IMG/VR virus record: IMGVR_UViG_3300024270_000002
From: a virus
Lineage: Duplodnaviria > Caudoviricetes
Strand: one strand, 5' to 3'
Length of the DNA: 64,000 bases
Shown here: piece by piece, positions 57,430 to 61,814 of the stretch
How the letters are laid out: the number at the start of each line of letters is the position of its first letter
Position numbering within the stretch: the stretch's first letter is position 1
Position numbers and translations under genes: made by a program
Notes under the pieces: generated by a model
Seen by the model: the letters and a program-made list of their open reading frames with translations, nothing else
Told to the model about the DNA's origin: nothing
The model's database searches: none

Positions 57430-59298
57430 ATGAATAGTTTATTTGGTGGCTTTGATTTATCAGTAAGTGCAAAGCCAAAAGTATCACCTGAAGCTCTTAT
57501 CAAAAAAGCAACCCCGACTGTTGCAGCAGAGCCTAAGAAGATAACTAATCAGAGTTTATTTGCTTCTGAAGAATTATCTGAATTTAATGTAGAACTTAAT
57601 AAACCTAAGCCTGAAGCCTTGGCTCGTAAGATTGCAAGTACTGAAGAAGGCGAAGTAGACGCTGCTAAGGTACTTAAGTCTAAGAAGGTATCTCTTGCTG
57701 AAAAGCTTGCCTTAATTAAAATTAAGGTCCTTGAAGTACTCGGTAAGCAGAGAAAGAACGTAGTTGTAATTAAGGATAAGGCAACTTTTGAAGACTATGT
57801 TTCTAAGGCAATTGAGTTCGGTCGAATTGCAATAGACACTGAGACCAATAACTCTACCGACCCCATGACTTGTCAGCTAATGGGTCTTTGCTTGTATTAT
57901 GAAGGCGGTAAGCAGGCTTATATTCCTATCAATCACGTTAACCCTGAAACTGGAGAACATCTTGATTGGCAGCTAACTGAAGAAGACTGTAGAGTACAGC
58001 TTCAGAGAATTAAGGATGCAGGCACTTTTGTAGTAATGCACAACGGTAAGTTCGATTATGAAGTTATTAAGTGCACTTGTGGTATTGAGATTGAGCCTGA
58101 CTGGGATACTATGATAGGCGCTCATACTATCAATGAAAATGAGAAAATGAACCTCAAGTGGCAGTACATTAATAAGATTGACCCCACTCAGGAAAAGTAT
58201 GATATCGAAAGCTTGTTCATCGTTCCGTATAAGTATGTAGAACCTGATATCTTTGCTCTCTACGCTGCGACCGACTCTATGATGACTGATAAACTTTATG
58301 TATATCAGGTAGCTATTTTGGAAGCACCCGGCAACGAAAGACTTTACTGGATGTTTAAAACTATTGAGATGCCGATTGTTAAAGTTGCAGGCGATATGGA
58401 GCTTATCGGTGTTTGTATTGACCAGGAATTTGGTGAAAGACTTCGTCTTAAGTTTAATCAGAATTTGGAAGATATTGACGTAAGAATTGAGCAAGAACTT
58501 GAGGCTCTCAAGCCTACAATTACAAAGTGGAAGAGCAGTAAGGATGCTACTGATAGAACTAAGCAGTTTGAGCCTAAGAAGACTACTCTCTCACTTGCAA
58601 AGCTTGAAGAAAAGTATCCTTATGTAGACGAAAAGACTGGTAAAAGATACAAGGTTGGTAAGTCTAAAATTGAACAGCTTGCTGATCCTATCAACCTTGC
58701 TTCGCCTACGCAGCTTGCTATACTATTTTATGATATTTTAAAGTGTCCTACGGTAAGCAAAAAATCGCCCAGAGGAACTGGAAAAGACGAGCTTGAGGCT
58801 TTAGCTGAGAGAACTGATATCGCGCTCTGTAAGCTGATTTTGGAGCGTCGTGGAGTGGTTAAACTTATCTCAACTTATATTGACGTTCTGCCTGCTCTTG
58901 CAAGACATTGGCCTGACGGACGTATTCGTTATAAGCTTAATTCTGTCGGTACTGATACTGGTCGTTTCTCTTCTGGTGGTGAATTTAAGTTCCTTGATGG
59001 TGATGAGCCTGTAGAAATTTCTGGATTTAACAGTCAGAATATTCCTTCTCGTGGAGACGGTAAAATCACTCGTCTTTTGTTTGAGGCTAAGAAAGAATTT
59101 GCTGATATTGAAGTGGATGTAGACCGTTTTACGGTACATGAAACAGCGGAGATCGAAACTGTTGACGGTTGGAAGTACGGAAAAGATATTGTAGCACTAA
59201 AAGATAGTGTACTTACGGACGATGGACCTGCTCTTATTGAAGTAGTTAGCTATGATGTTTTGAAGAAAGAATACGAATTTATTGTGAGGAAGTATTAA
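57430..59298 (+). CDS. polA: Family A DNA polymerase, fragment 1 (3'-5' exonuclease, thumb, start of palm) plus half-Hint tail
   Basis: DTET, HNGKFD, YAATD, NLASPTQL, TGRFSS, NSQNIP. Confidence 0.9.
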   Translation: MNSLFGGFDLSVSAKPKVSPEALIKKATPTVAAEPKKITNQSLFASEELSEFNVELNKPKPEALARKIASTEEGEVDAAKVLKSKKVSLAEKLALIKIKVLEVLGKQRKNVVVIKDKATFEDYVSKAIEFGRIAIDTETNNSTDPMTCQLMGLCLYYEGGKQAYIPINHVNPETGEHLDWQLTEEDCRVQLQRIKDAGTFVVMHNGKFDYEVIKCTCGIEIEPDWDTMIGAHTINENEKMNLKWQYINKIDPTQEKYDIESLFIVPYKYVEPDIFALYAATDSMMTDKLYVYQVAILEAPGNERLYWMFKTIEMPIVKVAGDMELIGVCIDQEFGERLRLKFNQNLEDIDVRIEQELEALKPTITKWKSSKDATDRTKQFEPKKTTLSLAKLEEKYPYVDEKTGKRYKVGKSKIEQLADPINLASPTQLAILFYDILKCPTVSKKSPRGTGKDELEALAERTDIALCKLILERRGVVKLISTYIDVLPALARHWPDGRIRYKLNSVGTDTGRFSSGGEFKFLDGDEPVEISGFNSQNIPSRGDGKITRLLFEAKKEFADIEVDVDRFTVHETAEIETVDGWKYGKDIVALKDSVLTDDGPALIEVVSYDVLKKEYEFIVRKY

Positions 59299-59729
59299 TG
59301 AAAGTAAGAACAAGAACTCAATATAAACTTGTCGGATCAGACTACTCTGCTCAAGAACCCCGTATAACAACGTATCTTTCTGGAGATCCAAACATGCGAC
59401 AGGCTTATCTCGAAGGCAAAGATTTATACTGCGTTATCGCATCAAATATTTATAATAATAAGTACGAAGAGAACCTGGAAAATTTTCCAGAAGGCCATGT
59501 ACTTGAGCTTGACGGTAAAAAGACTGTGGCTGGAAATGATAAAAGCTATAAAAAGCAGGTTTCAGATAAGCTAGAAGTTCCTTATTATTATTTGGTACCA
59601 ACTATTTCTGGAACAAAAGCGGCAGCTGAAATTCAGGCTGGTGATAGCATTATTGCTGATGAAGGTGCTTTTACTGTTGGTACTGTTGCGACTATAAATG
59701 ATATAACAACAATTTATTTTGTTGATTAA
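59298..59729 (+). CDS. polA: Family A DNA polymerase, fragment 2 (motif A) plus half-Hint tail
   Basis: GSDYSAQEPR, GKDLY; TAATG coupling to fragment 1. Confidence 0.88.
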   Translation: MKVRTRTQYKLVGSDYSAQEPRITTYLSGDPNMRQAYLEGKDLYCVIASNIYNNKYEENLENFPEGHVLELDGKKTVAGNDKSYKKQVSDKLEVPYYYLVPTISGTKAAAEIQAGDSIIADEGAFTVGTVATINDITTIYFVD

Positions 59730-59789
59730 ATTATTAGCTAAATTAAATAGGATACATTCCGTAAATAACAGCGAGGAGCAATTTAATTT

Positions 59790-60809
59790 ATGCTATATGT
59801 AATTTATTTAATCACAAATTTAATTAACAACAAAAAGTATGTTGGTCAGACTCAGCAAGGTCGCGAAGAAAAACGTTGGCAGGAGCATTTTGTTTACACA
59901 GTAAATGACAATAAGCTTCTTCATAATGCTATTAGAAAGTATGGCCCTGAAAATTTTGAAGTTAAGACTATAGAAACAGACATACCTGAAGAGCTAATTG
60001 ACGAACGAGAATGCTATTATATTAAGTATTATAACACTTTCTATCTAAATAAACAAGGCTATAATATGACTGAAGGCGGCCAAGGGATTCACGGGTATAT
60101 TCATACAGAAGAAACTAAGCAACAGATTAAAGAAAGTAATTTAGCTACTTGGCAAAAAATTAAAGAAGAAGAGCCTGAACGCTACTCTCGACTTTGTTTA
60201 AATAGAAGTCTTGCTAACAAAGGAAAGCCCAAATCTGCTGAGCATCGCGCTAAAATGAGTGTGATTGCTTCAGCACGTATTGGAGAGAAAAATTCTTTTT
60301 ACGGAAAGCACTTTTCGGAAGAGTCAAAAGAAAAACAACGTGAAAACTGGAGAACTAAGTGCGAACCTATTAAAGCTTTTTCCGCACAAACTGGCCAGCT
60401 GTATAAAAAGTATTATACTGCGATGGATGCTGTTCGAGACTTAAATCTGCAAAGTAGCGCAAATAGCCGTATTATAACAATATGTAAAGAGCAAAAGGGT
60501 GTTGGTTATGGATTTATTTGGCGATATGAAAAAGATTGTCCGGATGATTTTATTTTGGTAGCTAAGCATGAGCCACTATTAAGGCAGGACACTGGAATTA
60601 AAAAGTCCGCTGTAGCAAAAAAAGTTTTTCAATATGATAGTCAAAACAACTTAATAGCAGAGTTTGAATCTGCGGCTGAGGCAGCACGTAAGCTTCAACC
60701 AGACCAAGCTAAGCAACGAAACTTAGCGAAAAAAATAAATTGTACTTGCCGAGGACAGTATAAAACTTGCCACGGTTATGTTTGGAGCTACATGAAATTA
60801 GACAGTTAA
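59790..60809 (+). CDS. Free-standing GIY-YIG homing endonuclease with NUMOD3/NUMOD1 domains
   Basis: VIYLITNLINNKKYVGQT, RECYYI, GYNMT.GG, FYGKH.SEE.K, FESAAEAAR. Confidence 0.88.
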   Translation: MLYVIYLITNLINNKKYVGQTQQGREEKRWQEHFVYTVNDNKLLHNAIRKYGPENFEVKTIETDIPEELIDERECYYIKYYNTFYLNKQGYNMTEGGQGIHGYIHTEETKQQIKESNLATWQKIKEEEPERYSRLCLNRSLANKGKPKSAEHRAKMSVIASARIGEKNSFYGKHFSEESKEKQRENWRTKCEPIKAFSAQTGQLYKKYYTAMDAVRDLNLQSSANSRIITICKEQKGVGYGFIWRYEKDCPDDFILVAKHEPLLRQDTGIKKSAVAKKVFQYDSQNNLIAEFESAAEAARKLQPDQAKQRNLAKKINCTCRGQYKTCHGYVWSYMKLDS

Positions 60810-60854
60810 TATCGTATTTTATAATAATATAATTATTGAGGAGGTGATGCCTAC

Positions 60855-61814
60855 ATGAGTACTATTAAAACAATTGAAATAAAGTCCCCACCAAAGCTTC
60901 TTAATAAAGAAGGCAAGGAAAGACGTTCGGTTGCGAAGATGGTGCTTTTGTGACGAAACTTGGCACTTACGTATGGAATGGGGCCAAGCACGTTGGCAAA
61001 ACGTATTAATAAAACAAATCAGGAAGCACAAGAGATTTTCGATAACTTCTTTAAGAGCTTTCCGAAGGTAGAAGAGCTTATTAATAGCTCGAAAGAATTT
61101 TTAAGAACTCACGGTTATGTAGAAGACTGGGCAGGTAGAAGACGTCATTTGACAGATTACTTCCTTAATCCTTATGAAGCTTCTTACATGGATCCTGATA
61201 AGCTTATTGCTCAGACTTTTAATCCTATTCTTGGTTGTGAGAGCAGACCTCTTGTAGATGATAAGCTCACTTCTTGGGTAAATAGAGCTAAGACAACTAA
61301 GAATAATAAAGAATTTGATGAGCTTGCTAAGTTGGCAGCAAAAGAAGGAATTATTCTATCTGCAAATACCGGTAGAATCGCTCAGGCAGAGAGACAGTGC
61401 CTTAATGCAAGAATTCAGGGATCTGCAGCTTCACTTACTAAGCTGGCTATGATCCAGATTCATAATAGTCAGGAACTTAAAGATATTGATGCAAAACTTG
61501 TTATGACTATTCATGATGAAGTTATGCTCGAATGCCCTGCTTTGTATGCAGACCAGGCATCCGAGATTCTTCCAAGAATTATGATTGATGCTGCTGCACC
61601 TTATATCGATGTTCCTATGAAATGTGACCCTGCTATTGAGTCTCGTTGGTCTACTTCGGAGTACGCCGTAGCTGTTCAGTCTGAGTTTAAGAAGCTTACT
61701 GATAAAGGACTTGAAAGAGATGAAGCATTTAAGAAGCTTTATGCTAAGCACCCCGAGCTTCCTGAAGAAGCTATTTACAAAACTATTACTGAAGGCATTG
61801 ACCTTGAATTTTAA
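60855..61814 (+). CDS. polA: Family A DNA polymerase, fragment 3 (motifs B and C); in-frame TGA at 60951 inside a 12-nt insertion
   Basis: SD GAGGAGGTG; RRSVAKMVLL*RNLALTYG; NARIQGSAA; TIHDEV. Confidence 0.85.

Follow-up and report, generated by a model that had tools for sequence, protein, structure and literature searches.

In the 64,000-nucleotide (nt) stretch of viral DNA analyzed here (IMGVR_UViG_3300024270_000002, in the following termed the window), which belongs to a ~243-kb genome of an uncultured gut phage, the DNA polymerase gene polA is distributed over three open reading frames (ORFs) of the + strand, located at 57430-59298, 59298-59729, and 60855-61814 in the ORF list. At both breaks, the polymerase sequence is extended by the parts of a small domain that is related to the Hint fold of inteins and devoid of the residues known from protein splicing. 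We consider it likely that endonuclease cassettes split polA at these two sites and that the splicing-dead mini-Hint clips the fragments non-covalently into a three-chain polymerase. The idea of such a half-Hint module goes back to a prediction made from the sequence alone, referred to below as the original prediction.

Fragment 1 (57430-59298, 622 aa; Pfam DNA_pol_A_exo1 as well as DNA_pol_A profile positions 8-123) comprises the 3'-5' exonuclease and the N-terminal part of the polymerase, as far as the palm hairpin that precedes motif A, followed by a C-terminal extension of 65 aa (tail 1, 59101-59295), the N-part of the break-1 module. The ATG of fragment 2 overlaps the TAA of fragment 1 (TAATG). 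Fragment 2 (59298-59729, 143 aa; DNA_pol_A profile positions 150-201) starts with the N-terminal extension MKVRTRTQ (leader 1, 59298-59321), representing the last strand of the break-1 module, covers the polymerase from motif A to the fingers hairpin and ends in the 64-aa C-terminal extension tail 2 (59535-59726), the N-part of the break-2 module. Break 2 hosts a free-standing GIY-YIG homing endonuclease of 339 aa with NUMOD1/NUMOD3 DNA-binding motifs recognized by Pfam (59790-60809), flanked by just 60 and 45 nt of non-coding DNA. Fragment 3 in turn opens with leader 2 (MSTIKTIEIKSPPK, 60855-60896) as its N-terminal extension. While the two breaks and the tails agree with the original description of a three-piece polA, fragment 3 itself contains an in-frame TGA (60951-60953) in motif B, which had been missed. 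Thus, fragment 3a (60855-60953), consisting of leader 2 and the first half of motif B, stops at this TGA; the stop is the first codon of a 12-nt insert (TGA CGA AAC TTG, 60951-60962) placed after a TTG codon, and fragment 3b (60963-61814) supplies what is left of motif B together with motif C and the polA C-terminus, its DNA_pol_A match in Pfam reaching position 380/381. All these features lie on the + strand, and every polA fragment is preceded by its own Shine-Dalgarno sequence and ATG.

The proposed derivation of the module from Hint/intein domains held in profile searches as well as on the level of the fold. Compared with the PDB sequences, the tail-2 profile retrieved Hint proteins as its top four matches (2lwy BIL, E 1.4e-3; gp41-1, 5.6e-3 and 7.5e-3; Spl DnaX, 0.11), all aligning to intein residues ~10-53, and gave weaker second matches on the second pseudo-repeat of the Hint fold. 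Sub-threshold PT-HINT matches were found by Pfam in 5 of 18 family members. An exhaustive hmmsearch of 1.84 billion representative proteins with the same profile yielded 108 matches at E<=1e-3; 17 of the 19 non-polA matches scanned carry Pfam Hint, PT-HINT, Hint_2, Vint, or Intein_splicing domains. The best E-values toward Hint proteins range from 2.6e-11 (P0110; followed by P0112 with 2.5e-10) to 1e-7. The module itself was not found outside polA among the 29 database matches that were scanned, and the tail-1 profile was not significant by itself against PDB sequences (gp41-1, E 0.59).

The AlphaFold (AF2) model of a natural unsplit break-1 domain (relative L028) is all-beta, with a predicted local distance difference test score (pLDDT) of 94-97 over residues 21-90. 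In a comparison with 48,161 chains, its twelve best matches were all inteins or Hint domains; against MchDnaB-1 (Z 6.2, root-mean-square deviation (rmsd) 2.2 Å, 63 residues), model residues 30-94 span intein residues 1 to ~139. Tail 2 modeled alone reached a pLDDT of ~90 for residues 24-78 and showed the strand order of the break-1 model, except that the last strand was lacking. Its fold search likewise placed inteins first, with PI-SceI at Z 5.8 (1.4 Å over 53 residues) and gp41-1 at Z 5.3 with 23% identity. For the break-1 model, the wide search with VIA-align was needed to reveal the fold match: Foldseek of this model against the PDB returned nothing at E<=0.001, with MchDnaB-1 at a probability of 0.87 but a TM score of 0.28, among antibody chains. 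For both modules, the matches to inteins amount to Z 5-6 at an rmsd of 1.4-2.2 Å over 51-64 residues, which is weak on its own; the Hint assignment is firm because fold and sequence searches agree.

Both tails represent the same module, as had been read from their alignment. Tail 1 and tail 2 of the window align in BLASTP with 30% identity over 33 aa (E 0.002), and the alignments of the two tail families match in hhalign with a probability of 84% (P 7.7e-6, 39 columns). The tail-2 profile alone retrieves fragment 1 proteins of the break-1 type from the 1.84-billion-protein library, namely P0138 (1.7e-5) and P0167 (2e-4), the DNA_pol_A matches of which end at profile position ~155. The ratio of nonsynonymous to synonymous substitution rates (dN/dS) of tail 2 is 0.09-0.23 at saturated dS, which points to purifying selection on this tail and to the tails being functional. 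Within leader 2, K10-S11-P12 are invariant in 10 relatives.

A survey of relatives revealed fused, split, and module-less alleles at both sites. Break 1 is positioned between the palm strand RxLFxA and YKLVGSDYS. Here, the module is absent from L030, L048, and L056 (in L030, only 69 nt separate the NIP motif from motif A, and there is no tail 1), and it is continuous within one ORF in L026, L027, L028, and L033. In the window and most close relatives, it is split, and stop and start overlap or adjoin each other; in L021, L046, and L096, it is split with a GIY-YIG gene inserted, and, in another state, split with a spacer and no nuclease. At break 2, the module is absent from L003-L006 and L009-L012, which read ..TVCGYKTHLNKEG.. 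across the site, and continuous in P0148. Split break-2 alleles contain either a GIY-YIG enzyme (window, L001, L093-L095), an HNH enzyme (L030, L098), or no nuclease (L092, L097). In the unsplit forms, the residues equivalent to the leaders make up the final long strand, and the split site corresponds to the loop in front of this strand, reading EDSG in L028 and EPVEPIP in P0148. Leader 1 aligns with the strand following the EDSG loop (model strand 87-98, pLDDT >90 up to residue 98), and leader 2 with ..RITIRSPSKV.. of P0148. The module is not a purely split device, since continuous forms exist at both sites. A third break site was observed after the exonuclease domain: the metagenomic protein P0153 (165 aa) ends an exonuclease domain and carries the same Hint-like module at its C-terminus. 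The module is thus found at three polA sites, one following the exonuclease domain and the others preceding motif A and motif B, respectively.

The expected association of the module with homing endonucleases was confirmed at break 2 of the window and at both sites in relatives. The endonuclease-less relative L017 shares 92-95% DNA identity across polA with the window and lacks both ~1,375 nt (59527 to ~60900) and the 12-nt insert, with 18 nt (CGYKTH) present instead. In endonuclease-less alleles, tail 2, endonuclease, leader 2, and insert are all missing together. The extensions thus occur in split alleles and are absent from unsplit alleles without endonuclease, as seen at break 2 and, for break 1, in L030. 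Identity toward L017 dips to 72-80% in the 180 nt directly upstream of the insertion (59347-59526). Loose contig ends at window positions 60996 and 59371 (runs X2, X4, and X7), derived from the same faecal and bovine-gut metagenomes, extend into sequence of the endonuclease-less allele, and loose ends in two runs place both alleles in the same samples; hence, cassette-bearing and empty alleles co-occur, which is the setting that homing needs. The GIY-YIG proteins at break 2 (window, L001, L093-L095) form one orthologous group with 61-91% identity at the same site. The break-1 endonucleases form a separate group, with only the catalytic domain common to both, and at the same break-2 site either a GIY-YIG or an HNH enzyme is combined with the same tails.

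Just downstream of the break-2 endonuclease, short inserts beginning with a stop codon interrupt motif B. They are present in all examined alleles with a break-2 endonuclease except L030 (HNH), in which motif B is intact, and absent from every endonuclease-less allele. With the insert given in parentheses, the sequences read TTG(TGA CGA AAC TTG) in the window (60948-60962), ACT(TAG CGT ACT) in L001 (6630-6650), TTG(TAGCAGCT TTG) in L092 (4015-4040), and ACC(TAAAGTGA ACT) in L096 (4050-4075). All three stop codons are used, and skipping each insert restores the canonical motif. In most cases, the last codon of the insert repeats or resembles the codon in front of it (TTG..TTG, ACT..ACT, ACC..ACT); exceptions are L093 (5090-5115) and L094 with TTG..GTG and L098 with TTG..TCG. 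The motif-B inserts measure 9-12 nt, apart from the one of L098 (5115-5160), which extends to 35 nt and has a 6-bp hairpin directly after the stop. Plain readthrough of the motif-B stop was considered as a general mechanism and rejected, since related inserts of 5, 7, 8, 10, and 11 nt exist and the lengths of 5-12 nt (35 nt in L098) rule it out. The 12-nt insert of the window is a candidate site of ribosomal hopping, by which the junction peptide ..AKMVLLALTYGMGPSTLAK would be formed, and it probably shields the target site of the endonuclease.

In relatives, similar inserts also interrupt motif A (DYSAQEPR), which lies downstream of break 1; the window has none at this break. They are located at L046:5040-5070, L021:5035-5065, L037:5050-5075, L092:3520-3545, L093:3495-3515, L094:3055-3080, L058:4580-4605, and L038:4985-5010. 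Examples are GAA(TAGC)GAA, GAA(TGACT)GAG, TCT(TGACGAGG)TCT, and TCC(TAGCGGAAA)TCA; several are not multiples of three, and the insert of L038 (TCC TAGCT GCG) has no clean matching landing codon.

Taken as a mechanism, homing-endonuclease cassettes would have invaded polA at two sites, each of them bringing, or splitting, an all-beta Hint-derived domain of ~65-75 aa. The cut in polA would lie within the last surface loop of the mini-Hint; the tail would therefore comprise five to six strands and the leader the missing last one. Once the fragments have been translated separately, each with a Shine-Dalgarno sequence and an ATG of its own, the leader strand would dock into the tail in the manner of an associating split intein, yet without ligation, and this clamp together with the native polymerase interfaces would rebuild a three-chain polymerase. 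Break 2 would represent a live cassette, composed of tail 2, the GIY-YIG gene, leader 2, and the motif-B insert that has to be hopped. Break 1 would be an old scar, having lost the endonuclease still found there in relatives and retaining the overlap of stop and start.

That the leader, as a beta-strand, makes the module complete and so holds the fragments together is the best reading of the models, because in the continuous forms the leader is the last strand of the module. Strand complementation, as put forward in the original prediction, gains some weak support from a complex prediction of tail 2 with a 32-aa leader-2 peptide, which scored 0.50 compared with 0.00 for the best control; the runs agreed in at least 68% of contacts, with a partner pLDDT of at least 52. 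Of 80 solved complexes, 58 reached the mark applied to such predictions, as did 2 of 110 mismatched pairs; at a score of 0.60 or under, only 7 of the 80 solved complexes and both mismatches did so. Several points weigh against our interpretation. The assembly of the fragments rests on models, with the complex prediction being weak, and fold scores of Z 5-6 lie where chance arrangements occur, which leaves the Hint case to the agreement with the sequence matches. A whole fragment 3 requires an unproven recoding event. The cassette may have brought the module, or an endonuclease may have split a resident one. Moreover, the domain is tolerated, and perhaps useful, in unsplit form; clipping may therefore not be its original or only role. 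Finally, the fragments might be held together just by the native interfaces of the polymerase; according to a preprint on the T4 MobA element, the halves of the Aeh1 NrdA protein still bind each other after deletion of their extensions (10.1101/2022.08.31.505936).

The most serious rival explanation takes up these last points: the mini-Hint might be no more than an accessory domain inserted into the polA of this clade and have another function, binding for example a replisome partner or DNA, which endonucleases split by chance in a permissive loop while the polymerase core holds the fragments together. Unsplit versions under selection at both sites speak for it, as does the binding of the Aeh1 NrdA halves without extensions in that preprint. 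We nevertheless regard it as rather unlikely. The break-2 module is absent from alleles of 92-95% DNA identity and is found only where an endonuclease or its scar is present. Furthermore, the same module occurs at three polA sites, always at a fragment end or in an insertion loop, and it descends from a domain family specialized in two-piece association. A further-reaching version of the clip proposal, which we regard as about as likely to be right as wrong, sees in the mini-Hint a portable two-piece clamp (~55-65 aa plus a strand of 8-14 aa) that came from split inteins, dropped ligation, travels with homing endonucleases, and has settled in at least three phage polA sites.

Could the modules be unusual split inteins that still trans-splice the fragments by non-canonical chemistry? 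Their clear Hint homology, with gp41-1 among the best matches, would be in line with this, and real inteins do invade the same gene. The residues and the size of the module make it very improbable. Column-wise inspection of tails and leaders substantiated that the N-terminal Cys/Ser, TxxH, and the C-terminal HN-C/S/T are all absent. Intein position 1, the Cys/Ser nucleophile, is occupied by Glu93 in fragment 2 (E/I/T within the family) and by Phe/Thr in tail 1. The block B TxxH is missing, with the tails ending short of the block B position; tail 2 has zero histidines and tail 1 a single, not conserved one. The leaders end in ..KVRTRTQ/YKLVG and ..IKSPPK/LLNKEG, i.e., without the terminal HN and without Cys, Ser, or Thr at +1. 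A complete two-lobed Hint fold takes ~125 aa or more; of the ~65-75 aa of the module, 51-64 residues align to inteins of 127-170 aa. In agreement with the half-Hint size proposed, the module is about half a mini-intein, and about half of the Hint fold is lost. In addition, the host sequence is complete on both sides without any excision, and the unsplit forms retain the domain in an equally non-catalytic state. Judged by its sequence, the module cannot splice by known chemistry; being half-size and free of splicing residues, it should leave the polymerase product in pieces. As for the genuine inteins, fragment 3 of L092 (4053-5960) contains one with a LAGLIDADG domain at ..ARIQG/SAASL.. (Cys1, ..THN/S), and in P0206 the C-terminal part of a real intein stands at the start, directly ahead of TGRFSS; a single gene family thus contains real inteins alongside dead mini-Hint modules.

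An essential gene with three in-frame stops could also be a decaying pseudogene or an assembly artefact. This explanation is scarcely credible in view of the recurrence of the three-ORF arrangement. Contigs from three sequencing runs are identical to the window across 59255-61025, the exact fragment-2 protein occurs on 16 contigs, and its stand-alone homologues, more than 100 ORFs of ~143 aa on contigs of up to 444 kb, show the same architecture down to ~50% identity; sequencing errors as the origin of the stops are thereby excluded. Downstream of every stop, many synonymous changes are met by almost no protein changes, with fragment 3b retaining 98-99% protein identity to uninterrupted alleles. 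The least probable alternative are group I introns, with the tails as translated intron sequence: phage polA often holds endonuclease-bearing introns of this type (cited in PMC10580990), but an Rfam scan of 58800-61300 revealed no intron match at E<=10, and hence no conserved RNA core accompanying the endonuclease ORF (four chance-level snoRNA/sRNA rows appeared in the E-value scan), break 1 has zero spacer, the tails are conserved as protein and fold as a domain, and each fragment has its own translation start.

A megablast search with the polA region among 50,697 phage records gave zero matches. Relatives found by tblastn, at <=45% identity, were the human faecal phage contig MT839691, Dp-1, and Clostridium CS phages, in all of which polA is unsplit. 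Directly after polA, the window contains a 208-aa ORF without Pfam match (61840-62466), which is present in L021 and missing in L017, where a GNAT/transglutaminase-like gene (window 62498-63847) follows polA directly; this ORF is another variable insert adjoining polA. Upstream of polA, L001 contains an extra free-standing GIY-YIG gene (L001:1308-2036), preceded by a small helix-turn-helix ORF, between the primase and a 300-aa gene, and the window lacks this insert at the corresponding position (56312-56406).

Among known systems, the closest parallels are found in genes split by free-standing endonucleases. The T4 MobA element comprises the topoisomerase genes 39 and 60, the endonuclease gene mobA, and a 50-nt bypass (Manning & Atkins, 10.1101/2022.08.31.505936; Bonocora et al. 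2011 cited there). In this element, the split topoisomerase bears conserved C- and N-terminal extensions, and the bypass protects the target. On its decay, the nuclease is lost, then the bypass, at times with re-fusion, and MobE acts likewise on Aeh1 nrdA (10.1101/2022.08.31.505936). The polA case resembles MobA in the splitting of an essential replication gene by a free-standing homing endonuclease, in the C- and N-terminal extensions on the halves, and in a stop-led untranslated insert shortly into the downstream ORF, which in T4 protects the target site and which in the break-2 alleles co-occurs with the endonuclease as sequence. The decay series matches too (loss of the endonuclease, loss of the bypass, retention of split and tails, secondary fusion), and the type of endonuclease is swappable at one site. 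In contrast to MobA, the host gene is polA, the GIY-YIG or HNH enzymes belong to other lineages, and the inserts are short (5-12 nt; 35 nt in L098). Furthermore, the polA extensions have an identifiable Hint origin and fold, whereas the preprint section consulted gives no fold for the MobA extensions. The MobE-split NrdA of Aeh1 (Friedrich et al. 2007; Crona et al.; as cited in that preprint) is similar in that an endonuclease insertion produced a gene in pieces with extensions. Its fragments were demonstrated to form an active non-covalent complex, whereas the polA complex is predicted. Enzyme and endonuclease differ, and the NrdA extensions are not known to be Hint-like. The principle behind the original prediction is consequently not wholly new, as C- and N-terminal extensions on endonuclease-split genes had been described for T4 MobA and Aeh1 MobE.

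On the intein side, the fractured genes (Dassa et al. 2009, PMC2677866) share the order of an N-half with a Hint N-part, a GIY-YIG-type endonuclease ORF, and a Hint C-part with the C-half. Adjacent host ORFs with Hint parts and an endonuclease ORF in between are found at break 2 of the window and at break 1 of L021, L046, and L096, and gp41-1, the split intein of a fractured gene, ranks among the top matches of the tails in both sequence and fold. In contrast, inteins of fractured genes are full-size and ligate the halves by means of all splicing residues (PMC2677866); the polA module is half-size and has none of the catalytic residues for trans-splicing. The BIL and PT-HINT domains, which provide the best Pfam and PDB sequence matches of the tails, are likewise members of the Hint superfamily other than classical inteins. 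Unlike the module, they are full-size, keep their cleavage residues, are unsplit, and reside outside polymerases. In literature searches, no report of a split polA with Hint-like tails was found. The polA case lies between fractured genes with active split inteins and genes in pieces of the MobA/MobE type.

Essential genes split by endonucleases gain short extensions, the nature and origin of which have, to our knowledge, been left open so far. Here, these extensions come with a recognizable Hint ancestry, a confident predicted fold, unsplit as well as split versions, and graded evolutionary states. As a consequence, it can be tested directly how phages survive the breaking of their essential genes by selfish nucleases. 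The modules are compact natural candidates for non-covalent split-protein tags. If the reading as a portable clamp is true, they would close the gap between split-intein fractured genes and genes in pieces of the MobA/MobE type, and constitute a natural source of small non-covalent assembly tags. With its endonuclease, extensions, and stop-hop insert, polA joins the few genes known to carry these elements as one cassette, and its modules suggest a fate for inteins after the loss of splicing, namely to be kept as a clamp.

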